DNA of 16,637 nt from Candidatus Eiseniibacteriota bacterium. GTDB taxonomy: Bacteria > Eisenbacteria > RBG-16-71-46. The notes beneath the pieces were generated by a model. That model was not told the origin of the DNA. It saw only the letters and a program-made list of their open reading frames with translations, and ran no database searches. Location of the stretch: positions 1 to 16,637 of the forward strand of contig JBBRLX010000046.1 in the NCBI GenBank assembly GCA_038231135.1. The letters run 5' to 3'. Positions 1 through 16,637 of the stretch are shown piece by piece; within the stretch, counting starts at the first letter, position 1, and each line of letters opens with the position of its first letter. The translations under genes and the position numbers were made by a program.

Positions 1-780
1 AACCTCGGGTGCGCATCTATCCCGCGCGAGCCGTCAGGCGGGCTGGTGCCTCCCGTGCCGTCGTCGGGGAAGTGGGCCGACAGGATGTCTCCCCCACCGA
101 GGACGTATTTCATCACGCCGTCGGCGGTCATCTTTCCGCCCCACGACGTGTTGATGCCAATCGTGCCTCCGGCGGCGTGGACGACGAGCGGCTCCCCGGT
201 GGGGGTGGTGTCGAGTCGGGAGCCGACCATCCACACGTCGAGCGCGCGGAGCGGCAACAGGGTGTCTTCCCAGCCTCCGAAGCAGCCGCGCTGCGGACCG
301 CCCATCACGGTGTGGACGCGTCCATCGGGCAAAATACGGCCCACGTAGCCTGCCGAGGCGAAGTACACGCTGCTGTCGTGGCCGAGCGTGAGGCCGGTCA
401 CGAACCCAGTCTCCGCCGCGGTCGAGGGTCCGCCTTCGCCAGCGGCCGCCAGATCGTAACAGATGTTGGTCGAGCCGTTTCCAACGAGGGAGTGGATCAT
501 CCCGGCGTCGTCCACGTACCGGACCCGGCGGTTGAGGTTGTCGGCGAAGTAGAAGCAGCTCGCGCAGTCGAGCCCGGGGCGCACCTGGCCTTGCTGGGGA
601 TCGATCTGGGCGGCCGTCGCCGGCTTCTCGTCACCGTTGTAGCCGGGCGTGCCGGTACCCGCGACGCACCGGACAACGTCGTCGCTGCCGATGCGGTAGA
701 TGCGGCCACGCCCCGCGTCGGACACGAAGATGTTGCCGTTCGGGGCCACCGCGACGGCGCTGATGCTGCCGAAGGCGAAG
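1..780 (-). other. NHL-repeat beta-propeller region (partial) of the giant CDS
   Basis: Translation shows NHL-type blades: SAVAVAPNGNIFVSDAGRGRIYRI, VAGTGTPGYNGDEKPATAAQI, FYFADNLNRRVRYVDDAGMIHSLVGNG, GLTLGHDSSVYFA. Confidence 0.85.
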
Positions 781-3700
781 CTCTTGACGGGCACGTTGCA
801 GGTCGTGCTGTCGGTGCCGGCAGCGCCGTTGTCGCGCGAGAAGGCCTCCACGATCGGCCCGACAGCGCGCCCGGTGACGACGCTGCCATCGCCCTTCTGG
901 AGCACGCCCTTCTTGTCGTAGGCGTGGTGCACGTCGATGTCGCAGCCGGGCGCCGTCGCCTCCACGGGGCGATCAGCGTCGAACGTCTCCGTGCGCCACA
1001 CGGTGCGCTCCTGGCGGCTGGGAGTGCCCGTGGCCTTGGCGTCGGTCAGCGCGAACTTCGGCACATCGCCGTACTCGGTCGCGTAGACGTACGCGAGCCT
1101 GACCGACACCTGCTGGGCGCCGTGAATGTGGCGGCCGCAGGCGTCGGTGCCGTCCCAGGCGATCTCCTTGCGGAGGTTGACGACAGGATCGAAGGACTCC
1201 TTCGTGGTGTGGCCTCCCTTCGTCACGTACATGTCAATCCGCTTCAGGAGACCGAGGGGCTGATCGTCCCAGAGGACGATGGTGTGCTTGCTGTCCGCCT
1301 TGTCGGCGCGCCCGGTGGAGCACACCAGGGTGTAGGGCGTACCGGCGATCGGATCGCGGGAGAGGACGCGCCGATTCAGGGTGTCGATGGCCACGTTGCC
1401 GTGGCTCTCGATGCAGCCGCCTGGCAGATCGGTCTCGGGCCACTTGCGGCTCACCACGGTGGTGTCGGGCAAGTCGTGGAAGCCGGGGCTGATGCTCCAC
1501 GATCCAAACCGCGAGAGCTTGTTGCGGAGGAGCGCCTTCCCGACCGGGTACAGCGCAGCGAGCTCCTGGAGCTCGCACGTCGAGTAGCCCGCGGTGGTGA
1601 GGGCGGCCGGGGACTCGGCCACGCCGTCGCCGTCGAGATCGAGCGCGGCGACTCCCGCGTTGACGGCGACGATGCGGACGACCTGGCCGTTGGTGGTGGC
1701 TTGCCAGGAGCCGCGCTCGCCGCAGGTGGCGCACGGCGTGTCGTACGAGGCGGCGGGGAGGCCGGTCCCGACGGGGAGGTGGAGGATGTTCTCCACGTAG
1801 TAGGTCGCGGCCTGGCCGAGCTCGACGGTGCGAGCGCCGGCGCTCTGCACCACGTCGGCCGAGACATCCATGGCGTAGCCATGGGCGCTCTCGACAGGCA
1901 GGGTCGCCGCGGCGCGCTGGGGGCCGCGCGTCCCCACAGAGTGCTCGGTGATCCGGACCGTCGCGGAAGCGAGCGGGCTGAGCGTGCCACTGGCGGCCAC
2001 GAGCTGGGCCGTCGTGCCGGGCTCGACGATGAGGGTGCCTTGCCGCGTGCCGTCGGTGTCGGTCTCGATCACGCCGCGTGCGATCTGGCAGCCTGCGCCG
2101 AACGTGACCGTCGTGGCGACGGGCTCGCGCGTGATGAGCACCACGTCCTCGAGCTCGGAGAACGCACCCCACGGCGTGAGCAGCGTCCTCTGGGCGGTGA
2201 TGTAGCCCGACTTCTGCAGATCGAAGGCGTAGAGGGGGCCGCCGTTCACGACGAGATCGAACTGGCCGTCAGCCCGCGAGATCGTCTGTCCGAATTCGCC
2301 GTGCCCCGCGACGCGCACCGTGACGCCCGGGAGCGGTGTGCCGTCGGCCTGGAGGACACGGCCGTGCACCGGCGCGATCCGCTTGCCGATGAAGATCGAC
2401 GGGTCCACGCCGGTCTGGATGTTGGCGCTCCAGAGGTGCTTCACCTGATCGGCCAGCGTCGTGGGCACGGTGGGATCCAGAGGTGGGGCGACCACGCAGG
2501 GATCGGGCGGGAGGGTGCCCGTGCACGCGCCGTTGCTGGGCGTCGAGCAGCGACCCGTTCCAGGATCGCAGGTGCCCGCGTCGTGGCAGCCGTCGATGGG
2601 GGCGCAGTCCACGATCGCTCCCGCGCACGCTCCGCCGCGGCACTGATCGTTGCCGGTGCAGGCGATGCCGTCGTCGCAGGGCGCGCCGTCGTGCTTCGCC
2701 GGGTTGGAGCAGGCCCCCGTGGTTGGATTGCAGCTGCCGGCGCCGTGGCAGGTGTCCGTCGGCCCCGGGCACACCACGGGGTTCGAGGGGGTGCAGGTGC
2801 CGGACTGGCAGGCGTTGGTCTGGAAGCAGAGGTTGGCCCCCGGGCACGCGGTGCCGTTGGCCTTGGCCGCGTGAGTCACCGCGCCAGTCGACGGCGCGCA
2901 CGCGTCGGTGGTGCAGGGGTTTCCGTCATCGACGGTGATCGCCGTGCCGGGCGTGCACACGCCGCCGGCCGCGCACACCTCGACGCCGTTGCAGGCGTCG
3001 CCGTCCGAGCAACTGGCCCCGACGGCCCTCGGCTGGTGCACGACGCCCAGGCTGGGATCGCAGTAGTCGCTCGTGCAAGGGTTGTTGTCGTCGACGGTGG
3101 GCGGCACTCCCGCCGTGCACTGACCGGCCGCGCTGCAGACTTCCACGCCGTTGCAGGCGTTGGAGTCGCTGCACGACGCGCCAGGCGTCGGCGTGTGCGC
3201 GACACCGGTCGCAGGATCGCAGGTGTCCGCGGTGCAGGGGTTGTGGTCGTCGAGGACCGGCACCGACGGCGCGAAGCACACGCCGCCCGCAGAGCACACC
3301 TCGACGCCATTGCAGGCGTTGCCGTCCGAGCACGATGCGCCCACCTGGACGGTGTGGGTGACGCCCTGGGCTTCGGTGCAGGCGTCGACAGTGCAGGTGT
3401 TCCCGTCGTCGAGCGTCAAGGGGGTGCCCGCCGCGCAGTGACCCGCGCCGTCGCACCGCTCTTGACCGTTGCAGGAGAGGCCGTCCTGGCAGCCGACGTT
3501 GTACCCAGGGCTCAGGGGGGTGTGGCTGACGACACCGTTGGTGCAGTTGTCTTCGGTGCAGGGGTTGCCGTCATCCAGCGTCGGCGCAGCGTGCGGGATG
3601 CACGCTCCGGCGGCGTCGCAGAGCGAGACACCCGTGCATGCGCTTCCGGCCGAGCAGGCGCTGCCCGCTGCGAGCTGGGTGTGGGACACCCCGGTGATCG

Positions 3701-6700
3701 GATGGCAGCTGTCGGCGGTGCACGGGTTGCCGTCGTCCAGCGTCAGGGATCCGGGCGAGAGGCAAGCCCCGGTCGCCGTGCACACCTCGGCGCCGTTGCA
3801 CACGTCACCGTCGGAGCAGGAGAGGCCCGTGCTCGCCACGTGGGACACGGCGCCGGTGCCGGGATCGCAGGAATCCACCGTGCACGGGTTGCTGTCGTTC
3901 ACGTTGACCGGGTACGTCCCCGCGCAGGTGCCCGCGCCGTCGCAGAGATCGAGTTGCGTGCACGCGTTTCCGTCGTTGCAGAAGTAGTTGCCCGGGGCGG
4001 GCACGTGAACCACGCCGGTGTAGTAGTCGCACGAGTCGATCGTGCAGGGGTTCCCGTCGTCGATCGCCAGAGGCACGCCCGGCGCGCAGAACCCCGAGCC
4101 GTCGCACAGCTCGACGCCGTTGCAGGGGTGGCCGTCCGAACAGGACGCGCCCGCGCCCAGAGGCACGCCTGGAATGCACGCGCCGACGGCGTCACACACG
4201 GCTCCCGTGCTGCAGAGCGTGGCCGCGGGCCCACAGCTCGAGCCTGCTGCGAGCGTGACGTGCTGGACGCCGAGGACGGCGTCGCACGAGTCGACGGTGC
4301 AGGGGTTGCCGTCATCGACGATCGGTGAAGCGCCGGCGACGCAGATCCCCGCGCCATCGCAGGTCTCCATCCCGTTGCAGACCGTCGCGTCCGAGCACGG
4401 CGTCCCCGCGGCGAAGGGGGAGCTCGGCACGCAGCTACCGGCAGCGTTGCACGTCGCCGCACTCGCGCAGGCGCCCCCGCCCAGGCCACAGCTGGTTCCG
4501 GCGCTCACCGCCACGTGCTGCACCCCCAGGATCGGATCGCACGAGTCGACCGTGCAGGGGTTGCCGTCGTCGATCACGACGGGGACCGGCTGGCACGCGC
4601 CGTACGGAGGCGCTGCGAGGCACGTGCCCCGGGTGGAGCACGCGTCCGCGGGAGCCGGGCCACAAGGCGTCCCGGGAGACGCCGGCGTGGTCCCGTTGCA
4701 GACGCCAGACGCGTCGCAGGTGCCGAGGACACAGGCGTCGCCCACCGAGCACGCCGTGCCTGGCGCAAAGACGATGCCCGCGACGCAGGCCCCCGCCGCG
4801 TCACACACCGCCGGGCCGCTGCAGGAGGTGCCCGCAGCGCCACAGGAGGCTCCGGCCGCGAGCTGGACGTGCCGAACGCCGAGCACGGGATCGCACGAGT
4901 CGACCGTGCAGGGATTGCCGTCATCGATGGCTACGGGCACGCACGCGCCCGCCGCGCACGCCCCGACCGAGCACGGACCCGCCACCGAGCACGACGAGCC
5001 GTCCGCCACGGGCGTGTAGGTCACCCCGCCGGTCGTCGGATCGCACATGTCCACGGTGCAGGGGTTGTTGTCCGACACCTGCACGGGAGTCCCCGGGACG
5101 CACTCGGCGCTGTAGTTGCAGATCGCGGCGCCGTTGCAGAGGTTGCCGTCCCCGCACGGCGAGAAGGGCAATGCAAAGTGATAGGGCCCCGAGTGATCAC
5201 AAGCGTCGTAGGTACACGGGTTTCCATCGTCGATCACGAGCGGGCTACCCGCGACGCAGGCACCGCTGCCGTCGCACGTCTCGAGCCCGTTGCACGGATT
5301 GTCGTCGGAGCACGGGCTGCCCGCGGCGCGCGGGACGCCTGGAGTGCAGTCGCCACCGGCGCTGCATGTGCCTGGTGCGAAGCAGACCGATTCCGAGAGA
5401 GAGCACATCGTTCCTGCGGCCGCGAGCACGTGCTGCACACCGAGAACGGAATCGCAGGTGTCAACCGTGCAAGGGTTGCCGTCCGACGGATCCAGGGTTT
5501 GCGGGAAGCACGACGTGGTCGTGTCCGAGGGGAGACATACCCCGCGGACCGAGCAAGCGTCGGGCGCCGGCGGGCCGCACGGCGTCCCGCTCGGTGCGGC
5601 CACGCCCCCCGTGCACGCGCCAGCTGCGTTGCAGGTCGCTCCCGAGAAGCACTCGTTCGCGGTGCCCCCCGGCAAGTGGAACCCGCCGCCGGGATCGCAG
5701 GTGCTTCCCACCGCCAGCTGTGGGTGCGTCACTGTTCCCGTCGCTGGATCGCAGGTGTCCGCCGTGCAGGGATCCCCATCGCTGGTGAAGACCGGGAACC
5801 CGGGCTGGCACGCGCCTATCGCATCGCACAGCTCGTCACCGTTGCATGCGTTGCCATCGGAGCAGGTCGTGCCCTCGGCGACGGGCGTGCCCACGCAGCT
5901 GCCCCCGGCGTTGCAGCTCTCGCCAGTCACGCACAGGCTCCCCGTGGAGCACTCCGTCCCGGTGGAGACCGGCGTGTGCGACACGGTGCCGTTGGCCGGG
6001 TTGCACGCGTCGGCCGTGCAGGGGTTGTTGTCGTTCACCTGGACGGGCGTGCCGGGCGTGCACACGGCCATCGCGTTGCACGTCTCCTGGCCGTTGCAGG
6101 CGTTGCTGTCCGCACAGGACGTCCCGGCCGCCACCGGCACGTGGGTCACGCCGATCGACGGGCTGCAGGAGTCTGTGGTGCACGGGTTGGCGTCGTCCAC
6201 GACGGGCGCGACGCCCGGAGTGCACGCGCCCGCCGCATCGCACAGCTCGACACCGTTGCACGCGTTGCCGTCGGTGCACGAGGTGCCCGCGCTGACGGGC
6301 GTGTGCGTCACGCCGATCACCGGATCGCACGCGTCGACGGTGCAGGGGTTGCCATCGTCGAGCACGGGCGCGGGGCCTGCACCGCAGATGCCGGCCGCGC
6401 TGCAGGTCTCGCTGCCGTCACAGATGTTGCCGTCCGAGCAGGACGTGCCCGGGACCACCGGCGTGTGCGTCACTCCCGTCGAGGCGTCGCAGGCGTCCGT
6501 GGTGCAAGGGTTGCTGTCGTCGACGACGAGCGCAGTGCCCGGGGCACACACGCCGCCCGCCGCGCAGGTCTCGATGCCGTTGCACGCGTTGCCGTCCGAG
6601 CAGCTCGTGCCGATCGCCGCGGGGGTGTGGGCCACGCCCGTCACCGCGTTGCAGGAGTCCACCGTGCAGGGGTTCCCGTCGTCGAACGACGGCGGCGGAC

Positions 6701-9700
6701 CGGCCACGCAGGCGCCCGCGCCGTTGCAGCTCTCGGCACCGTTGCACAGGTTGTCGTCCAGACATGCCACGCCGATCGGCGCGGGTGTGTGCGTGACGCC
6801 GAGCGCCAGTGTGCAAGCGTCCACGGTGCAGGAATTGCCATCGTCGAGGCTCGGGGCGCTGCCACCTGTGCAGACACCCACGGCGTCGCAGAGTTCGACG
6901 CCGTTGCACGCGTTTCCGTCCGAGCAAGCGACACCCGCGCTGACCGGCACGTGCACGATCCCCGCGATCGGATCGCACGAGTCGGCCGTGCACGGGTTGC
7001 CGTCGTCCACGCTCACGCTCCCCGCGACACAGGTGCCCGCCGGGTTGCAGGTGGCGCCGCAGGCCGAACAGGCGGTGCCCGTCGCCACCGGAGTGTGGGT
7101 CACGCCCGACGCCGGATCGCAGGCGTCGGTGGTGCAGCTGTTTCCATCGTCGACGCCGGGAGCGACTCCAGCCGCGCAGGTCCCCGCGATGCCGCACAGC
7201 TCGACGCCGTTGCACGGGTTGCCGTCCGAGCACGCCGTCCCCTCGGGCACGGCGGTGTGCGTTACCCCGAGCGCCGGCGTGCACGCATCGGTGGTGCACG
7301 GGTTGCCGTCGTCGATGGCTGGACCGTCGGTACCGGACTGGCATGCTCCGGTGGCGTCGCAGCGCTCGACACCGTTGCAGACGTTGCCATCCGAGCAGAT
7401 CGTGCCGCCGGGAAGAGGCGCGTGAAGGACCCCGGCGATCGCATCGCAGGTGTCGGCGGTGCAGGGGTTGGCGTCGTCCAGGAGAGGCGCCGGGCCGGCC
7501 ACGCAGCCGCCGCTCGCGTTGCACAGCTCGTTGCCGTTGCAGGCGTTGCCGTCGCTGCACGCCGTGCCCGCGGAGACGGCCACGTGAGTCACGCCGATCG
7601 CCGGGCTGCACGCGTCGGTCGTGCACGGATTGCCATCGTCGACCACCGGCGGAGTCCCGCTCGCGCAGACGCCGAGCGGATCGCACAGCTCGACGCCGTT
7701 GCAGGCGTTGCCGTCGCTGCAATTCGTGCCCGTCGCCACCGGCGTGTGCGTGACACCGGTCCCCGGGTAGCACGCGTCGGTGGTGCACACGTTCCCGTCG
7801 TCGACGGTGGGTGGGACGCCAGGCTGGCAGCTCCCGCTCCCGTTGCAGAGCTCGTCGCCGTTGCACAGGTTGCCGTCCCCGCAGGCCGAGCCCGCAGCCA
7901 CGCTGGTGTGGGTCACGCCGCTCACCGGGTTGCAGGCGTCGGTCGTGCACGGGTTCCCGTCGTCGACCGTCGGCGCGGTGCCGGCCTGGCAGGCGCCCGC
8001 TCCGTTGCAGAGCTCGGTGCCGTTGCAGGCGTTGCCGTCGCTGCAGGCCGTTCCCGCGGGCAGCGGGGCATGCGAGACGCCGGTCACTGGATCGCAGGCG
8101 TCGGTCGTGCACGGGTTCCCGTCGTCCACGTTGATGCTCCCCGCGGTGCAGCTCCCCGCCGCGTTGCAGGTGGCGCCGCAGGCCGAGCAGGAGGTGCCGG
8201 TGGCCACCGGCGTGTGGGTCGCCCCCGTGGCGGGGTTGCACGCGTCGGTCGTGCAGACGTTGCCGTCATCGATCGCCAGCGGGGTGCCGGCCTGGCACGC
8301 GCCGCTGGCATTGCACAGCTCGTTACCGTTGCAGACATTCCCGTCGCTGCAGCTGGTGCCCTGCACCACCGGCACGTGGCTCACCCCCGTCGCGGGACTA
8401 CACGCGTCGGAGGTGCACGGGTTCCCATCGTCGACCGAGGGCGGGCTGCCCGCGGTGCAGGTGCCGCTGCCGTCGCAAGTCTCGGAGCCATTGCACAGGT
8501 TGCCATCCGCGCACGAGGTGCCCGCGCCGAGCGGCGTGTGGGTCACGCCGGCTCCCGGGCTGCACGCGTCGGCGGTGCATGGATTGCCATCGTCGATCGC
8601 CGGCGCCGTCCCCGCCACGCAGCTCCCCGTGGCGTCGCAGAGCTCCGCTCCGTTGCAGGCGTTGCCGTCCGTGCACGAGGTCCCCGCTGAGACGGGCACA
8701 TGGGTCACGCCGGTCCCAGGCGCGCACGCGTCGGTCGTGCACGGGTTCCCGTCGTCGACGGTCGGCGGCAGCCCAGCCTGGCAGACTCCCCCTCCCGAGC
8801 ACGTCTCGGCGCCGTTGCAGGCGTTGCCATCGGAGCAGGCCGTGCCCGCCGAGACAGCCACGTGATGCACGCCTGTCACGGCGTCACACGAGTCCGTCGT
8901 GCACGGGTTGCCGTCGTCCACCGCAGGCGCGGTCCCCGCGGTGCACGTGCCAGAGCCGTCGCACGTCTCCCCACCGTTGCACGCGTTGCCGTCGGAGCAG
9001 GACACGCCCGCCGACACCGGCGTATGGGACACTCCGCTGGCCGGTGCGCAGGTGTCCGTCGTGCAGGGATTTCCGTCGTCGACCGTCGGCGCGGTCCCGG
9101 CGGCGCAGGTGCCCGAGCCGGTGCAGATCTCCGCGCCGTTGCACGCGTTACCGTCCGAGCACGAGGCGCCCGCGGACACCGGCGTGTGGGTCACTCCCGT
9201 CGCAGGCGCACACGCGTCCGTCGTGCAGGGATTGCCGTCATCGACGATCGGGGGCGCGCCCGACTGGCACGAACCGCTCGCGCTGCACGTCTCGGCACCG
9301 TTGCAGGCATTCCCATCCGCGCAGGAGGTCCCCGCCGCGACCGGCGTGTGGGAGACGCCGGTCGTCGGACTGCAGGTGTCGGTGGTGCACGGGTTCCCGT
9401 CGTCCACCACCGGCGCGGTCCCCGCGAGGCAGGTGCCGCTCGCGTCGCAGAGCTCCGTCCCGTTGCACGCGTTGGCGTCGGCGCACGAGGTGCCGGCGGG
9501 CACGGGCGTGTGGCTCACGCCGCTCACCGGGCTGCAGCTGTCCGCCGTGCACGGGTTCCCGTCGTCCACGACCGGCGCGGTGCCCGACTGGCATGCTCCG
9601 GCGCCGTTGCACGTCTCGGCCCCGTTGCAGGCGTTGCCGTCCGAGCACCCCGTCCCCGCCGAAGCCGGCGTGTGGGCCACCCCGGTCGCGGGGCTGCAGG

Positions 9701-12588
9701 TGTCGACCGTGCAGGGGTTGCCATCGTCCACCACCGGCGCGGTACCCGCCTGGCACGTCGATGTCGCGTTGCACAGCTCCACGCCGTTGCACGCGTTGCC
9801 GTCGGAGCAGCTCGTCCCCGCGGCCACCGGGGTGTGCGAGATGCCGCTGACCGGATCGCACGCATCCGCGGTGCACGGGTTCCCGTCGTCCACGTTCACG
9901 CTCCCCGCCACGCACGTCGCCGACGCGTTGCACGTCGCGCCGCACGCCGAGCACGACGTGCCAGTGGCCACCGGCGTGTGCGTCACGCCGCTCGCCGGGT
10001 TGCACGCGTCGGTCGTGCACGGGTTCCCGTCGTTCACGGCCGGTGGTGTCCCCGCCGTGCACGTCCCGCTCCCATTGCAGGTCTCGGAGCCGTTGCACAG
10101 GTTGCCGTCCGCACACGATGTCCCGGCCGCGATCGGGGTGTGGCTCACGCCGCTCGCCGGGTTGCACGCGTCCGCCGTGCACGGGTTGCCGTCGTCGATC
10201 ACGAGGGGCGTCCCCGCGGCGCAGCTCCCGCCTGCGGTGCAGATCTCGGCGCCGTTGCACACGTCGCCGTCCGAGCACGCGGTCCCCGCCGAGACGGGCG
10301 TGTGCGTGACGCCGGTCGCCGGGTTGCAAGCGTCGGTCGTGCACGCGTTGCCGTCGTCCACCGCGGGAGGCGTCCCGGCCACGCACGCCCCCGCGGCGCT
10401 GCAGGTCTCGGCGCCGTTGCACAGGTTGCCGTCGGCGCACGACGTCCCCGTCGCCACGGGCGTGTGGCTCACTCCGGTCGACGGGCTGCACGCGTCGGTC
10501 GTGCACGGGTTGCCATCGTCCACCACCGGGGCGGTCCCCGCCAGACACGCGCCCGTCGCGTTGCAGAGCTCCGCACCGTTGCAGGCGTTCCCGTCGCTGC
10601 AAGAGGTACCCGAAGCCTTCGGCGTGTGGCTCACGCCGGTCGATGGACTGCAGGCGTCGGTCGTGCACGGGTTGCCGTCGTCGACGATCGGGGGCGTCCC
10701 CGCCGCGCACGTCCCCGAAGAGCAGAGCTCGCTCCCATTGCATGCGTTCCCGTCGGTGCACGAGGTGCCGTTCGCGGCGATCGGGTTCGAGCAGACGCCC
10801 GTCGTCGTGTCGCACGTCCCCGCCACGTGGCACGCGTTCGACGCCGTGCACACCCACCGGGCTCGCTCCCGCGCACGCGCCAGACTGGCACGTATCGCTG
10901 GTCGTGCACGCGTTCCCGTCGTTGCACGCGCTCCCGTTCGCCTTCGCGGGGTTGCTGCAGACTCCCGTCCCGGTGTTGCACACGCCGGCGGTGTGGCACT
11001 GATCGCTCGCCGCGCAGATCACCGGGCTCGCGCCGGTGCAGGTCCCCGACTGGCACGTGTCGCTCTGCGTGCACGCGTTGCCGTCCGAGCACGCCGTCCC
11101 GTTCGCCACGCTCTGATCGGCGGGACACGCCGCCGCGTTGCCCGAGCACTTCTCGACCGCGTCGCAGGTGCCGATCGACGCGCGGCACACCATGGTCGCC
11201 GCCGCGAACGCGTCGGTCGGGCAAGCGTTCGACGCCCCGGAGCAGCTCTCCACCACGTCGCAGGGTCCGGCGGCGGCGCGACACACCGTGCCGGCCGAGG
11301 CGACCGCATCCGCCGGGCACGCGGCGCTCGCTCCTGTGCACTTGTCGGCGACGTCACACCCTCCCGCGACCGCGGCTCGGCACACCGTCGTCGACGCCGC
11401 GAAGCCGTTGGCCGGGCACGCCGTCGAGCTCCCATTGCACACCTCGACAACGTCACAGACCCCGCTGCTGGCACGACACGCCGTCCCCGAAGGCGCGGCC
11501 ACATGGGTGCAACTCCCGCTCACGCACGCGTCCGTCGTGCAGGGGTTCCCGTCGTCGCACGACGCCGGGCACACGTACTGAAAGCCGTCCTCGAGGCCCA
11601 GGTGGCAGTTCTGCCCGACGTCGACGTCCTTGCCTCCCACGGCGCCGGTCAGCGTCACGTTCTGCTGCAGCAACAACTTCCCGTTCGGGGCGTAGAGCAG
11701 ACCCCGCACGTGCGAATTCTCGAACGTCGCCGCCGTCGTCGCCGAGCTCAGCGCCGTGATCTGGATGCTCTTCGCGGTCAGCGTCGTTCCCGACGCCGGT
11801 CCGATCGTCTGGTTCTGCTGGAAGGCGAATGCGTTGGCGACGCGCACATCCACCGCCGCGAGGGCCTGGATCTGTGTGTTCTGCCCCGCTGTGATGTTCG
11901 CGATCTGGTACAGGCCTCCCGACAGCTTCACCACCGCGTTCTGCCCGATCGTCCACGTCGCGTACTGCCCTGGAGCCACCGTCTGCGTCACGCTGTCGGC
12001 GATGGTCACGTTCGTGGTGCCCGGCGTCACCGTGGGCGCCGCTGGCAGCGCGGGAGGCTGCAGGAAGGCCGTCACTGTGCCCCACGTCGCGTTGGCGCCA
12101 TGCGTGAAGTGATCGGACGAGATCGCCCCCGCGTGCACGTTCGTGTCGATGCCGAGCCACGCTCCGTACGACGCCCCCGGCAACGTGACGGCCTGTTGGG
12201 TCCAGAGCGTGTAGCCGCTCTGGATCGTCCCCGTCGTCGACGTGGCTCGCGCCCCGATGTCGCCGCTCGAGATCACCGCGTTCTGCTGGATCCGCGCGCT
12301 CCGTTCGGCGAGCACGACGAACGATCCGAGAGTGAGTGCTTCCTTCGCCGCTGCCGTCGGCTCCGACACGGACGGCGGTGCAGCTCGGGTAAGGACGGGC
12401 GCAGGCGGCGCCGGCTCCTCGCCGTGCTTCCCGCAGCCCAGGACGGCCAGGACGACAAGGCCAAGGCCGGAGAGCTGGGCCCACCTGCTCCAGGAGGGGC
12501 CACCCGGTACGGCTGGGGTGACTCCGGAATCGCCACCGCGGTGGTGATGGAAGTCATGGCGAGCGCCGACGCTGGGAGGCTTTTTCAT
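1..12588 (-). CDS. Giant Cys-rich lipoprotein with teneurin-like (FN-plug + NHL) region; 3'-partial, one apparent +1 frameshift at ~10854
   Basis: ATG at 12588 preceded by AAGGA. 578 codons read in the frame of ORF 9238..12855 (MKKPP...GASPV); a sensible protein then continues in the adjacent frame from 10853 (VCTASNACHV...). The track lists no terminated minus ORF in that frame below 11019, and spot translations found no stop. Third positions are strongly G/C and domains are coherent along the length. Confidence 0.9.
870..2490 (-). other. Teneurin-like TTR/carboxypeptidase-regulatory-like + FN-plug region of the giant CDS
   Basis: [43 protein letters not shown]...QRTLLTPWGAF, then IAGTPYTLVCSTGRA, EIAWDGTDACGRHIHG and [20 protein letters not shown]. 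These motifs are collinear with motifs recalled from teneurin extracellular cores. Confidence 0.8.
2520..2870 (-). repeat. Second-type Cys-rich repeats (distal end of stalk)
   Basis: ACQSGTCTPSNPVVCPGPTDTCHGAGSCNPTTGACSNPAK and CDDGIACTGNDQCRGGACAG...CHDAGTCDPGTGRC resemble the repeats at 10770-11110. Confidence 0.75.
2870..10770 (-). repeat. Coding tandem array of ~45 Cys-rich units, mostly 162 nt/54 aa with 6 Cys (Dictyostelium CTDC-like DDGNPCTxDxC motif)
   Basis: Motif resembling gtgca(c/g)gggtt(g/c)ccgtcgtc counted 45 times between 2911 and 10663, mostly at 162-nt spacing (e.g. 10663, 10501, 10339, 10177, 10015). Typical unit: CSDGNACNGAELCxxxGxCxAGTxPxVDDGNPCTTDACxPxTGVxHTPVxAGTx. Confidence 0.92.
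10770..11110 (-). repeat. Second-type Cys-rich repeats (proximal end of stalk), two copies
   Basis: CSDGNACTQSDTCQSGTCTGASPVICAASDQCHTAGVCNTGTGVCSNP, followed by a paralogous copy that spans the frameshift. Confidence 0.8.
11113..11480 (-). repeat. Four disintegrin-like Cys repeats (~30-31 aa)
   Basis: CRASSGVCDVVEVCNGSSTACP, CRAAVAGGCDVADKCTGASAACP, CRAAAGPCDVVESCSGASNACP and CRASIGTCDAVEKCSGNAAACP; the CRx4-5CDxxExCxGxSxxCPxD pattern is that of the ADAM disintegrin C-terminal half. Confidence 0.7.
11581..12336 (-). other. Probable beta-helix/beta-solenoid domain (ice-binding DUF3494-like or related)
   Basis: Nearly Cys-free ~250 aa rich in T/G/A/Q/N with SFVVLA, SGDIG, VAPGQY and GLLYAPNGKLLLQQNVTLTGAV, and recurring GQN/QQN turns. 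Confidence 0.5.
12433..12588 (-). other. Lipoprotein signal peptide of the giant CDS (lipobox VLG-C, Cys codon 12433-12435)
   Basis: RWAQLSGLGLVVLAVLGC followed by a Pro-rich linker (GKHGEEPAPPAP). The n-region is unusually long, so the start codon is uncertain. Confidence 0.65.
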
Positions 12589-12797: not shown

Positions 12798-12922
12798 TCT
12801 CGAGCGCTGGGAGGTTGCTTGCTTTCACTGGACACGCGACGACTTCGCGGGTCAAGAACGGAAACTTTGCGCACCCGATCCTCGAGAGGATCTGCGTGAT
12901 CCGAGTGGCGGAACTCCGCTGC

Positions 12923-13318
12923 CTACTGACGCCGGAGCGCCACCTGGATCGCCAGGTGTGCCGTCGACCAGCTCTCCGCCACCGCCCTCGTCACGAGCTC
13001 TCGCTGCTTCTCCGCGGGCAGGCCGAGCACCAGGTACGCGTGCCGCAGCGTCAGCTTCTCGAGCTCCGGCGCACGCATTGTGATCCGGAAGATCGCCAGG
13101 CACCGCCGCAGCGTGGTCACCGAGAAGGGGCACCCCGATCGCAGGGCGATCGCCTCCACCGACCTTCGCTTCGGACCGCGCCGAGAAGAAAGCGCGACGT
13201 CGCCGCCGTACACCCCCAGGACGAGGCGTCCGACCTCCAGCGCAGAGGGAAGATCGCTGATCGACCCGACGCGCTGCAGCTCGTCGATGACGTGTTCGAA
13301 GGGATCGTGGTGGCGCAC
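12923..13318 (-). CDS. Hypothetical helical protein, DUF1016/YhcG N-terminal-like, no nuclease domain (~131 aa)
   Basis: 3' part of ORF 12923..13846; GTG at 13318 after purine-rich GAGAGGGGAGG. Motif order LEVGRLVL, PFSVTTLRRCLAIF, LTLRHAYLVLGL, RAVAESWSTAHLAIQV. Confidence 0.6.
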   Translation of the reverse strand: MRHHDPFEHVIDELQRVGSISDLPSALEVGRLVLGVYGGDVALSSRRGPKRRSVEAIALRSGCPFSVTTLRRCLAIFRITMRAPELEKLTLRHAYLVLGLPAEKQRELVTRAVAESWSTAHLAIQVALRRQ

Positions 13319-13511
13319 CCTCCCCTCTCGGCCCTGCGAATCCCGAGTTGCGTGTTTCTGGACGAACCGCGAATCACGGGGTGAGCAAGGAGAGGTACCG
13401 GGTGCTCGAGCCGGGCCCCGTTTCGCTCGTCCCATCCGTAGGGTGGTAATGTTGTGCTCTGGATGCACATGAATGGGCCCCCGGAAGGTAGGATCTCGGA
13501 GGGTGAACAAA

Positions 13512-13811
13512 TCACCGAGCCGCGGTAGCCCTGCGAGCGCGGCGACGTGGGACCCCAGGCGTCTCGGCTGGCGGGGCGAGCAAGTCGGCGGGCTCGCAGC
13601 CCAGCGCAAGCGCGAGTTTCTCGATGGTGCGTAGGCCCAGGTTCTCGCCCCCGCGCTCCACACGCTGAATGTACCGCGCCGACACCCCGGCCAGTTCCGC
13701 GAGGCGCTCCTGGGTGAAGCCGCGGGTCCGGCGCAGCTCGGACACGCGCAGCCCCACCCGGTCGAGGAGCGGAGAGTGCGAGCGGGGGAGCGTTGGCGTG
13801 GGCGGCGGCAC
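13512..13811 (-). CDS. XRE-family (HTH_3) transcriptional regulator; start uncertain
   Basis: VGLRVSELRRTRGFTQERLAELAGVSARYIQRVERGGENLGLRTIEKLALALGCEPADLL is a classic XRE HTH. GTG 13811 chosen tentatively; the ORF's maximal start at 13895 would overlap the kinase. Confidence 0.9.
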   Translation of the reverse strand: MPPPTPTLPRSHSPLLDRVGLRVSELRRTRGFTQERLAELAGVSARYIQRVERGGENLGLRTIEKLALALGCEPADLLAPPAETPGVPRRRARRATAAR

Positions 13812-13879
13812 TGCCCGTGTGCGGTCGCTCGGAAAGACGCGGCCAACCACGACCCATAAGTACGTGTTAGCCTCGCACG

Positions 13880-15304
13880 GTGCAGGACTCCGCAACCCAG
13901 CTGTACGACCCGACGATGATGCGCGCGCAGAAGCGCGTCGGGCTCTTCCTACGGGAGAAGTGGCGGCTCGATCGGCTGCTCGGGGTCGGCGGGATGGCGG
14001 CGGTCTACGCGGCGACCCACCGAAACGGCAAGCGCGGCGCGATCAAGATGCTGCATCCGGAGCTCTCCGCGGACCCCGGGATTCGCGAGCGCTTCCTGCG
14101 CGAGGGACGAGCCGCGAACCACGTCGGCCACCCCGGAGCGGTGTCCGTCCTCGACGACGACACCGCCGAGGACGGATCGATCTTCCTCGTGATGGATCTT
14201 CTTGAGGGCGAGAGCCTGGAGGGCCGGCGGGAGCGAATGGGCGGGAAGCTCGACGTGATGGACGTGCTCTCCATCACGGATCAGGTGCTCAACGTGCTCA
14301 TCGCGGCGCACGCGAAGGGCATCGTTCATCGCGATCTGAAGCCCGACAACCTCTTCGTGACGCGCGACGGGGCGGTAAAGGTCCTCGATTTCGGTATCGC
14401 ACGACTCCGTGAGAGCGGCGCTTCCAAGGGCACTCACACCGGCATCTCGATGGGGACTCCCTCGTACATGGCCCAGGAGCAGGCTCGCGCGCTCTGGGAT
14501 GAGGTCGACGGTCGTACGGATCTCTGGGCGGTCGGAGCCACCATGTTCGCGTGCCTGACGGGCCGCGTCGTTCATGAAGGACGCACGATGAACGAACAGC
14601 TCCTGTCGGCGATGACCAAGCCCGCGCCGCCGGTCCGCACGCTCGCCCCGGCAACGCCGCGTCCGGTTGCCGAGGTCATCGATCAGGCTCTGGCGTTCGA
14701 TCGTGAAGGGCGGTTCCCCACCGCTGGCGACATGCAGGCGGCCCTCCGGGGAGCGTATGAGGCTCTGCAAAGCGGCGCGCCCATTTCGACGGCGCCGAGG
14801 CTCCTTGTGCCGGACGTCGCGATCCAGAAAACGCTGCCCTCGTTCCCCGGCTCGGGCGGCCTCGCAGACCCCCGGACGGAGGGCGCGACCGCGCGCGCGA
14901 TCGTCAGCGGCACGGGTCCGGGCCGCCCTCGAGCGGCGATCGGTCAACGCGTCGCGATGGGCGTCGTGGCCGTCGCTCTCTGCATCGCGCTGATTGTTGC
15001 AGCATCGTTCGCGCTCCCTGGCGGTCGCGAGGCCGCGACGACCACCGCGCCGGGCACGGCGGCGCCGAACACCCCGGACGTCCCCGGTCAGTCGGCGTCG
15101 GCAACGCCGGCGGTCATGCCCACAACGGCTCCGTCAGAGTCCACGCCGGAGTCCGCTCCGACTACCCCCCCCGTCAAAAAGGACCTCCGCGCGAAAACGG
15201 GCGCGGCTGGCGCGGCAGCCAAGACTGCCCCCGACACGGGGAAGCCCCCTCCCCCTGTCGTCGCGCCGAATCGAAAAGGCGGCCCCATGGACGACAACCT
15301 ATGA
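13880..15304 (+). CDS. Membrane-anchored Hanks-type Ser/Thr protein kinase
   Basis: LGVGGMAAVY, AIKML, HRDLKPDN, DFG, GTPSYMAQEQ, DLWAVG; TM segment VAMGVVAVALCIALIVAASFAL; Pro/Thr-rich C-terminal tail. Confidence 0.95.
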   Translation: MQDSATQLYDPTMMRAQKRVGLFLREKWRLDRLLGVGGMAAVYAATHRNGKRGAIKMLHPELSADPGIRERFLREGRAANHVGHPGAVSVLDDDTAEDGSIFLVMDLLEGESLEGRRERMGGKLDVMDVLSITDQVLNVLIAAHAKGIVHRDLKPDNLFVTRDGAVKVLDFGIARLRESGASKGTHTGISMGTPSYMAQEQARALWDEVDGRTDLWAVGATMFACLTGRVVHEGRTMNEQLLSAMTKPAPPVRTLAPATPRPVAEVIDQALAFDREGRFPTAGDMQAALRGAYEALQSGAPISTAPRLLVPDVAIQKTLPSFPGSGGLADPRTEGATARAIVSGTGPGRPRAAIGQRVAMGVVAVALCIALIVAASFALPGGREAATTTAPGTAAPNTPDVPGQSASATPAVMPTTAPSESTPESAPTTPPVKKDLRAKTGAAGAAAKTAPDTGKPPPPVVAPNRKGGPMDDNL

Positions 15305-16293
15305 CCCTGCGCCCTTTCCTCTGCGCCTTCCTGATCGCCGCGAGTTCCGCGGCTGCTGACCCCGCGAGCGAAGCGCTCTTCAAGGAGGGAAAGGCGAAGT
15401 ACGAAGCTGGCGAATACGTCGCCGCGCTCGAGAACTTCCGGCAGGCCTACGCCCGCACCAGGAGCCCGGCGGCGATGCTGAGCATCGGGACGACGCTGAA
15501 AGCGCTCGGGCGCTTCGCTGAAGCCGCGGACGCCTACGAAGCCTACCTCGCGGATCCCGGCGCCAATCCGGCGAAGAAAGCCGAGACTCAGAAGGCGCTT
15601 CTCGAATCACTCAAGAGCGTAGCAACGCTGAAGATCGACGCGGAAACGAACGCCAACGTCACGGTCGACGCCCGCGAGGTGAAGGGATCAGTGCGCGTGG
15701 ATCCAGGCGCGCACGTGGTCATCGCGGATGACGGTTCGGGCAACCCGATGACAACCCAGATCACCGTGAAAGCGGGGGAGGAGCGAACCGTCTCACTGCG
15801 CCGCAAGGCGGATGGCTCGCCGCCCGCAACGGGACCGAGCGAAAGGAAAGAGCCCAGGGAGCCTCCGGCCACTCCCCAGCCCGCGCGGCGACCCGGATCA
15901 GGTGGAGGGGGGGGCATTCCGGTATTGAGCTACGTCCTCGTCGGCACCGGGATTCTCGCGGGCGGTGTTGCGGTGTACGCCGGCGTGCAGTCGAGAGGAA
16001 AGTACAGCGACGCCGGAGGGTTCGCGACTGCCAAGCTGGAATGCAACGGCGCAGCCACGGAAGCGTGTCGGAGCGCGAGAAGCGCCGACATAAACAGGGC
16101 GAACGACGACGGAGACCAGCTTCAACGCGTGACCATCGTCGCGGGCGCGGTTGGCGTGGCCGCGGTCGTCAGCGGAATCCTCGTCGCGGTCTTCACACGA
16201 TCTGCGGATGACGCCATGGCAGCTCGACCGCCCGCCCTCACCGTGAGCGCGGGACCAGGCACCGCCGGGGTGTCCCTCGGCGGGCTCTGGTAG
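15301..16293 (+). CDS. Exported TPR + PEGA-like protein with hydrophobic C-terminal segments
   Basis: Signal peptide MTLRPFLCAFLIAASSAAA; TPR-like ALFKEGKAKYEAGEYVAALENFRQAY...LGRFAEAADAYEAYL; PEGA-like VRVDPGAHVV...ITVKAGEERTVSL; ends GVSLGGLW; ATGA overlap with the kinase stop. Confidence 0.85.
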   Translation: MTLRPFLCAFLIAASSAAADPASEALFKEGKAKYEAGEYVAALENFRQAYARTRSPAAMLSIGTTLKALGRFAEAADAYEAYLADPGANPAKKAETQKALLESLKSVATLKIDAETNANVTVDAREVKGSVRVDPGAHVVIADDGSGNPMTTQITVKAGEERTVSLRRKADGSPPATGPSERKEPREPPATPQPARRPGSGGGGGIPVLSYVLVGTGILAGGVAVYAGVQSRGKYSDAGGFATAKLECNGAATEACRSARSADINRANDDGDQLQRVTIVAGAVGVAAVVSGILVAVFTRSADDAMAARPPALTVSAGPGTAGVSLGGLW

Positions 16294-16397
16294 GTGGGTT
16301 GGCGGCGCGGGCGGCGGCCCGGATAGAGCATCACGTGAGCTCGAAAGATTCTGCAGTGCGCAACGACGGAAGGCTGATTCATCATGAGGAGGTCGAG

Positions 16398-16637
16398 ATG
16401 AAGCAAAAGACAAACCCCAAGATCACGTTCCTCTCGCTTGGGATCCTGCTCATAGCCTGTGGGTCGAGAGCCGACGACCCCGCCACGAGCTCGGCGGCTT
16501 CAGCGCTCGCGAGAAGTGACCCACCCCCGCTCGGGAGAAGTGGTCCACGTGGGGATCGTGCTTTTCCGGGCTCGTCTCACCTCATGAATCTTCTCCTTCA
16601 CGCTGCTTCGCTGGCGCTACTTCCTCTTCTTCCCTCG
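16398..16637 (+). CDS. Probable lipoprotein, 3'-partial
   Basis: Strong SD GAGGAGG (16386-16392), then ATG 16398: MKQKTNPKITFLSLGILLIAC with lipobox LIA-C; no stop before the window end, so absent from the ORF track. Confidence 0.65.
   Translation, partial: MKQKTNPKITFLSLGILLIACGSRADDPATSSAASALARSDPPPLGRSGPRGDRAFPGSSHLMNLLLHAASLALLPLLPS

Follow-up and report, generated by a model that had tools for sequence, protein, structure and literature searches.

Bacterial teneurin-like proteins (TLPs) have been described as containers that cleave themselves and keep a small tip hidden inside a shell without an exit, and animal teneurins as uncleaved and sending a linker out of the shell (PMC6425310 and PMC13018210). 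The window, i.e., the whole stretch of 16,637 nucleotides that was analyzed, is the entire contig JBBRLX010000046.1 (C46) of a 4.09-Mb genome bin (GCA_038231135.1) assigned to a Candidatus Eiseniibacteriota bacterium, and its minus strand bears a giant gene coding for a TLP on a very long cysteine-rich stalk. We found that this gene is likely a member of a previously undescribed TLP subfamily in which the first shell is followed by a conserved linker and a second Rhs shell. It is this double-shell layout that is new; the anchor-stalk-superfold layout was already known, and in that respect the length of the stalk alone stands out.

A giant TLP gene split across two contigs

The original prediction, made from the window alone, held that a lipobox, a β-helix-like domain, cysteine repeats, a teneurin-type core, and NHL blades are encoded by one hidden gene, and all of these elements are indeed present on the minus strand. 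As the window spans the whole contig, direct extension beyond the contig end was impossible, and no contig-end overlaps were detected within the assembly. Within the assembly, YD-shell sequence occurs only on contig C72, which is taken up entirely by an open frame of 605 codons. A 9,460-nucleotide (nt) public contig, recognized in both placements by its identical length and depth, corresponds from its base 1500 on to window positions 1 to 7961 and from its base 1 on to positions 1 to 160 of C72. The gap that it bridges is 1,339 nt long, preserves the frame (447 codons), and agrees with the spacing in the structure of the Bacillus inaquosorum TLP (BiTLP; PDB 9IFO); these 447 codons of the shell region fall outside the sequence read. 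The C46 and C72 parts are one gene, bridged in frame, of at least about 5,250 codons counting C46, the gap, and C72, and the YD shell expected downstream is accordingly found on C72. This contig is open to its final base, and the public contig extends 996 nt further. Searches of genome contigs with exact peptides of the core retrieved no relatives, and no RNA holder is listed for the locus. The public contigs and the bin disagree in seven single-base positions (window position 12832 and positions 14661 to 14863), indicating that the population is not clonal.

Comparison of the window core with BiTLP confirmed a true TLP core: the match begins at window position 2525, covers residues 10 to 646 through the TTR, TIP, FN-plug, and NHL regions, and reaches an E value of 1.5e-115, against 1e-10 to 1e-26 for the animal teneurins. 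The Pfam FN-plug model did not match this copy, in a region that the 9IFO alignment covers, and matched five relatives. With the in-frame bridge to C72, the domain order is TTR-TIP-FN-plug-NHL-YD shell, as in the bacterial TLPs (BiTLP, PDB 9IFO/9PT5; Raoelijaona et al. 2026, PMC13018210). The N terminus is likewise of the TLP type, in which a signal peptide precedes a variable adhesion-type region, represented here by the lipobox, a DUF7305 domain, and Dicty_CTDC units. BiTLP outscores the teneurins over both the window core and C72, and the likeness to teneurins therefore reads as convergence rather than ancestry. A special kinship to the animal teneurins was considered on account of a short C72 core segment that matches Ten-3 best and was rejected, as BiTLP scores far higher over 540 amino acids (aa).

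Relatives with two Rhs shells

The top three relatives of both the window core and C72 (P0211, P0161, and P0170) are proteins of 4,100 to 5,500 aa with two Rhs shells. A junction search added P0394, P0438, and P0447, and a DNA pattern added a gene from a Polyangiaceae metagenome-assembled genome (MAG; L031), for a total of seven such proteins, hereafter doubles. They start with a lipobox (where the start is complete), followed by a DUF7305-type domain, a cysteine stalk with or without Kelch repeats, and the TLP superfold. After the superfold come a linker of 88 to 105 aa, PKD domains, DUF6531, a second shell whose last DPxG motif is intact, and a variable tip. Pfam recovered the TTR, YD-shell, PKD, DUF6531, and Rhs-repeat matches in the five doubles scanned. 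P0447 and L031 are cut and end within shell 2; among the five doubles that are complete, identity is about 40% in the linker and about 25% in the final tip. An AlphaFold model of shell 1 from a relative superimposes on 9IFO with a root mean square deviation of 2.1 Å, and in a model of a relative's shell 1, linker, and PKD domain, the shell is confidently predicted and the linker has a predicted local distance difference test score (pLDDT) below 50.

One shell-2 tip resembles the TNT, Tox-ART-HYD1, and TreTu toxins at 0.90 to 0.91, which we treat as a weak lead. Two shell-2 tips show by eye a pattern that we take to be PD-(D/E)xK-like. The double with the tip that resembles these toxins is P0170, and directly behind its gene, in L034, lies a small open reading frame (ORF; about 3412 to 3864, minus strand) with no Pfam match, whose product is a candidate immunity protein.

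The PKD-DUF6531-shell-tip module is shared by the doubles and a set of stalked single-shell proteins (P0178, P0480, P0486, and P0488, and PKD-domain Rhs proteins of Archangium and Acidobacteriota), some of which also possess DUF7305 and the cysteine stalk; these proteins, however, have no teneurin superfold between the stalk and the PKD domains. In a tree, the shell-2 sequences of the doubles interleave with those of the stalked single-shell PKD-Rhs proteins. This pattern of sequence relationships suggests that the TLP unit may be a cassette that was acquired or lost ahead of the stalked PKD-DUF6531-Rhs toxins of the same lineage.

The TLP core occurs in 118 of 401 Polyangiales genomes, and the full junction was found only in the seed genome (G041) among these 401 Polyangiales and 401 Myxococcota genomes. 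The junction DNA pattern returned two genome matches, one real and one due to chance, and three metagenome matches, one real (identical to P0170) and two due to chance. Two further candidates were set aside: the two stalked TLPs of G226 are ordinary single-shell proteins, and the TLP of G265 is cut by its contig. No cultured carrier of a double-shell gene was found. The double-shell TLP layout was not found in the literature searched, with subscription papers and bioRxiv supplements lying outside its view; four motifs of the subfamily are likewise not in the part of the PMC13018210 supplements covered, though alignment gaps there could hide them.

Placement of this copy among the double-shell proteins

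In a quick maximum-likelihood tree of 35 cores, this copy falls in a clade with six doubles with an SH-like approximate likelihood ratio test (SH-aLRT) support of 99. The segment of the shell that precedes the Rhs core is 61 to 63 aa long in C72 and in all six anchored doubles, versus 29 to 42 aa in 113 of 114 anchored single-shell TLPs (67 of 189 proteins were unanchored in this count, among them P0211, in which the long form was recognized by eye). At 62 aa in this copy versus a typical 36, it amounts to an insertion of about 26 aa. C72 further has the post-core linker with its LDSxC...C...DLP motif, and a linker profile built from the seven doubles ranked the C72 tail first of 137, at 11.4 bits versus 5.2 for the next. 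The end of C72 coincides with the start of the first PKD domain in the relatives. These features make the gene a likely member of the double-shell subfamily; we infer that it too continues into a second shell, which would bring its total to about 7,100 to 7,300 aa.

Several observations weigh against this placement. Neither a PKD domain nor a second shell belonging to this gene is present in the assembly, the linker score is modest (E value of 0.002), the window core forms a long branch (1.7), and a tree of shell-1 sequences leaves C72 outside the clade of the seven doubles (starred in that tree), in a position that it does not settle. The copy might accordingly lack a second shell, ending soon past the linker or carrying some other domain, as a nontoxic adhesin or a decayed remnant; nothing is assembled downstream of C72, no member of its clade is more diverged, and its placement in the shell tree leaves room for such an outcome. 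We nevertheless regard it as very unlikely, given that this copy has in common with the doubles both the inserted shell segment and the entire linker as far as the point where PKD begins, that all seven proteins with the linker go on into PKD domains and a second shell, and that C72 is open to its last base with the public contig running on beyond it.

Altered cleavage sites in the first shell

In published TLPs the bipartite DPxG core is intact and the variable tip, of about 15 kDa, is hidden (PMC13018210); bacterial TLPs are stated to retain every catalytic residue and to show neither a linker nor an exit (PMC6425310). The present gene departs from them in its altered core and FN-plug sites, the shell insertion, and the conserved linker, and its relatives depart further in their second shell. 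The expectation that a PxxxxDPxG core followed by a small toxin domain would be found downstream was not borne out. Of the bipartite DPxG autoprotease the catalytic Arg is kept, the second Asp is replaced by Ala, and the first motif has a two-residue deletion; in place of a small hypervariable tip within the shell, the conserved linker follows the core, open to the contig end. The second catalytic Asp is also missing from the uncleaved chicken Ten-2 (PMC13018210). This copy has no Ser at or beside the position of the conserved FN-plug Ser (S724), which 78 of 91 anchored single-shell TLPs have at or next to its place, versus one of five anchored doubles. In shell 1, Glu stands in place of the first catalytic Asp in six of six doubles (and also in L031), whereas 149 of 154 single-shell TLPs have Asp there. 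On these sequence differences, cleavage at shell 1 is likely absent.

Proposed mechanism

We propose that the gene product is a predicted surface lipoprotein whose stalk of 3,000 residues would hold out a teneurin-like head. The first shell, uncleaved, would act together with the NHL propeller as a head for contact, adhesion, or recognition; the chain would thread out of shell 1 via the short linker, and a second Rhs shell, presumed for this copy, would carry a likely antibacterial toxin. The relatives add about 1,900 aa past the shell-1 core, which exceeds the cavity of BiTLP (44,000 cubic angstroms; PMC13018210), and we infer that the chain must leave shell 1. Both the toxicity and the adhesion or recognition role of shell 1 and the NHL propeller are predictions, as are lipidation and surface display; the earlier suggestion of a long-reach contact device is plausible. 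Taken as a whole, i.e., a stalked uncleaved head, chain exit, a second toxin shell, and a product blocked in this strain by a frame break (see below), this mechanism is in our estimation probably correct, if by no means securely so. More tentatively, and with rather less confidence, we suggest that a rare Polyangiales subfamily may have made the TLP superfold, otherwise a toxin container, into an uncleaved stalked recognition head, with an exit gate built by the insertion and a second Rhs toxin shell behind it, repeating the key step toward the animal teneurin receptors, and that this gene of about 7,000 aa would be its extreme member.

The state of the cleavage sites in the relatives tells partly against this mechanism. 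All seven retain the catalytic Arg and the second Asp, the Asp-to-Glu change is conservative and present in five of 154 single-shell TLPs, and the Gly-Ser at the FN-plug site is kept in P0211 and, by eye, in P0161, so that shell 1 may still cleave. Moreover, two of the five complete tips have no family assignment. A two-stage release can be conceived on this basis, in which shell 1 cuts itself, traps the linker inside as a tether, and frees the whole PKD-Rhs toxin unit on contact with the target. Beyond the retained Arg and second Asp, such a model draws on two conserved linker cysteines and one near the FN-plug site, which recall the bond between C719 and C2216 by which the tip of BiTLP is held to the plug (PMC13018210). 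We consider it unlikely, since Glu replaces the first Asp in all seven relatives, the second motif has lost its Pro, the second Asp is absent from this copy as from uncleaved Ten-2, and the linker must exit the shell even so.

Frame break and condition of this copy

A one-base frame change within the gene had been predicted, and both the codon composition and the downstream frame, which runs without a stop through 3,617 codons up to the end of the contig, agree with it. The GC content at third codon positions (GC3) is 0.84 to 0.93 in the coding frames (0.76 in the last bin, of 17 codons) versus 0.53 to 0.58 in the off-frame continuations. Programmed slippage was rejected, as the break site has no slippery run and no homopolymer of more than three bases. 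A public contig from a second assembly crosses the site with zero gaps and has no indel variant listed there. The break is therefore not an error of the genome assembler alone and is present in the dominant allele or in the reads; the second assembly probably derives from the same sequencing run, which may be the source of the bin, and hence is not independent. The frame break likely prevents production of the full protein in this strain.

The core of this copy is also eroded, a further point against the proposed mechanism: it keeps 74% of 149 conserved core columns versus 87 to 92% in the doubles, and only one of 171 single-shell TLPs falls below that value. Despite this erosion the gene has no stops and its stalk cysteines are intact, which suggests relaxed constraint on the head and then a recent break. 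The absence of stops over 3,617 plus 605 codons, a GC3 near 0.9 throughout, and the retention of all of the cysteines in the regular units imply that selection acted until recently. The same features, and the probable reuse of the same reads in the second assembly, which thereby offers no independent confirmation of the break, could instead mean that the break is a sequencing artifact or is read through and that this strain produces the giant protein in full. We think this quite unlikely in view of the gapless crossing of the site by the public contig with no indel variant listed, the lack of a homopolymer longer than three bases, and the eroded core.

Alternatively, the N-terminal lipoprotein and the stalk-core part could be two separate genes, as the downstream frame starts with a GTG at 10853 that has a GGAG about 12 bases upstream. 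This possibility is largely refuted and scarcely credible: the break lies inside a stalk unit, the upstream frame runs on for 539 more codons as off-frame, low-GC3 sequence, and the downstream product would have no signal peptide. In homologues the N-terminal domain, stalk, and core are carried in a single ORF, in line with the view of the original prediction that all belong to one gene.

The cysteine stalk

The stalk comprises 3,016 aa with 352 cysteines and 46 D-x-N/D-x-C-T/S-x-D-x-C motifs, mainly in 54-aa units of six cysteines, and is matched 45 times by the Pfam Dicty_CTDC model. A three-unit AlphaFold model is confident at the local level (pLDDT of 91.7; predicted template modeling score of 0.53), and Foldseek retrieved no PDB fold for it at an E value of ≤0.001. 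Neither Pfam nor Foldseek detected epidermal growth factor (EGF) matches in the stalk, whose units are of the Dicty_CTDC/Disintegrin-like kind and are presumably disulfide bonded. Were they EGF sized, the stalk would reach an estimated 100 to 150 nm. A 48-aa variant recurs at units 5, 16, and 23, which suggests that the stalk may have grown by block duplications. Its head-proximal third is less regular and has more aromatic residues.

Similar cysteine motifs are found in 44 of 165 TLP-core proteins examined, a survey that covered proteins of up to 6,330 aa, with a maximum of 25 per protein. The stalk described here is the longest found on a TLP among those examined, yet it is a modular part. 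The same stalk bears other heads in proteins P0127-P0371, namely, Kelch, carbohydrate-binding, amidase, MYXO-CTERM-anchored, and Rhs without TTR, and 49 matched stretches were counted in one stalked protein 7,507 aa long.

Feature map, neighboring genes, and probable host

The features of the giant gene are collected in Table 1. The ATG at 12588 opens 577 in-frame codons, and the hydrophobic stretch behind it ends in V-L-G-C52. The top ESM Atlas matches of the DUF7305 domain are DUF7305/pAdhesive_15 at 0.92 to 0.94. A DUF7305 domain is also N terminal in L031, P0447, P0130, and P0198, and it is possibly an adhesion or spacer module.

Table 1. Features of the giant TLP gene (window positions unless a contig is named)
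Feature	Position	Strand	Evidence
Start codon, long signal peptide, predicted lipobox (V-L-G-C52)	12433..12588	-	Sequence; lipobox-like Cys at the equivalent place in homologues
DUF7305 domain (ice-binding/adhesive-like, probably β-helical)	11572..12348	-	Pfam PF23981, E 1e-8
Stalk part 1: one Dicty_CTDC unit, four Disintegrin-like units, more Cys modules	10856..11571	-	PF00200, E 6.6e-19, 4 stretches; PF00526
One-base frame break within a stalk unit	10853..10855	-	Sequence; also in a public contig
Main Cys stalk, ~2,780 aa, 45 Dicty_CTDC motifs	2526..10853	-	Pfam; unit analysis
Teneurin TTR-like domain	2136..2384	-	Pfam PF25020, E 3.1e-21
TIP domain and FN-plug (approximate boundaries)	890..2135	-	Unbroken alignment to residues 358-1010 of 9IFO
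NHL propeller, truncated where the contig ends; continues through the gap into C72	1..889	-	Pfam TEN_NHL
YD shell, altered Rhs core, linker	contig C72		Translation and family matches

Upstream of the giant gene (window positions 12926 to 16637) are, on the minus strand, a 133-aa orphan ORF and a gene for an XRE-type helix-turn-helix protein (13515 to 13760); next come a Ser/Thr kinase gene (13880 to 15304), a gene for a TPR protein with a signal peptide (15301 to 16293), and the start of another probable lipoprotein gene. All of these neighbors have a Polyangiales-like appearance. The kinase shares up to 59% identity with Polyangiaceae kinases versus at most 41% within its own bin, and the TPR protein has 19 homologues in one Polyangiaceae genome and weak matches in seven of 40 relatives of the host. 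RecA was used to place the host, rpoB not having been found in the assembly, and the RecA of the bin is 62% identical to that of Polyangiaceae versus 83 to 88% to its kin. From these kinase, TPR, and RecA comparisons, C46 and C72 were probably misbinned from a Polyangiales cell or form part of a large island acquired by transfer; tetranucleotide distance did not distinguish between the two.

The TLPs of the host family (G001, G004, G005, G006, G013, and G020) were considered as orthologues and rejected, being Ig type and 31 to 38% identical, with no cysteine stalk; in five of them the core was read, and its DPxG-type motifs are intact. Several genera of that family carry ordinary Ig-type TLPs with variable tips (L017-L021). 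One of them, L019 (G020:C1, about 2085000 to 2086000), is split in the middle of the YD shell, and the opposite strand of the intervening sequence reads like an insertion-sequence transposase. Eisenbacteria, the phylum of this family, are not among the six phyla listed in PMC13018210.

Relation to known TLPs and teneurins, and implications

The original prediction had also taken the anchor-cysteine stalk-superfold layout to be new. That claim falls, as the layout is contained in the data of PMC13018210 and such motifs are present in the 44 TLPs noted above. In the same source, Myxococcota TLPs are predicted lipoproteins, and the legend to its Supplementary Fig. 1c has Dicty_CTDC among the TLP N-terminal domains. 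The TLP of Sorangium cellulosum So ce836 (2,106 aa, in the supplementary alignment of PMC13018210) shares with the present gene the lipobox, a cysteine unit of roughly 54 aa, and the superfold, but it has two units only, against 46 motifs here, no DUF7305, and a single shell. A near-identical entry preceding it in that alignment has an intact core and a short tip.

Like the animal teneurins (Ten-2, 6FB3; Ten-3, 6FAY), the system described here combines a membrane anchor, a cysteine-rich spacer, the superfold, a lost catalytic Asp, and an internal linker, the last being about 126 aa in Ten-2 (PMC6425310) versus 88 to 105 aa in the doubles. Unlike them, it has a predicted lipid anchor rather than a transmembrane one, no intracellular domain, non-EGF repeats in place of the eight EGF repeats, and a TIP domain, and the linker of the doubles is followed by PKD domains and an Rhs shell, as opposed to the ABD and Tox-GHH of the animal proteins. 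The parallel that had been drawn with the EGF stalk of teneurins is an analogy only, as the stalk units match no EGF or solved fold.

Although the copy in the window is broken and incomplete, the double-shell proteins offer a way into several questions of TLP biology. They must pass the chain out of the first shell, whether it is cut or uncut, and they provide a bacterial system for how exit and loss of cleavage arise, as well as a handle on how TLP toxins reach their targets without an injection machine. With stalks of a few to about 50 units within one subfamily, reach becomes a testable variable. If the proposed reading is true, bacteria would have repeated the step that turned the animal teneurins into receptors.

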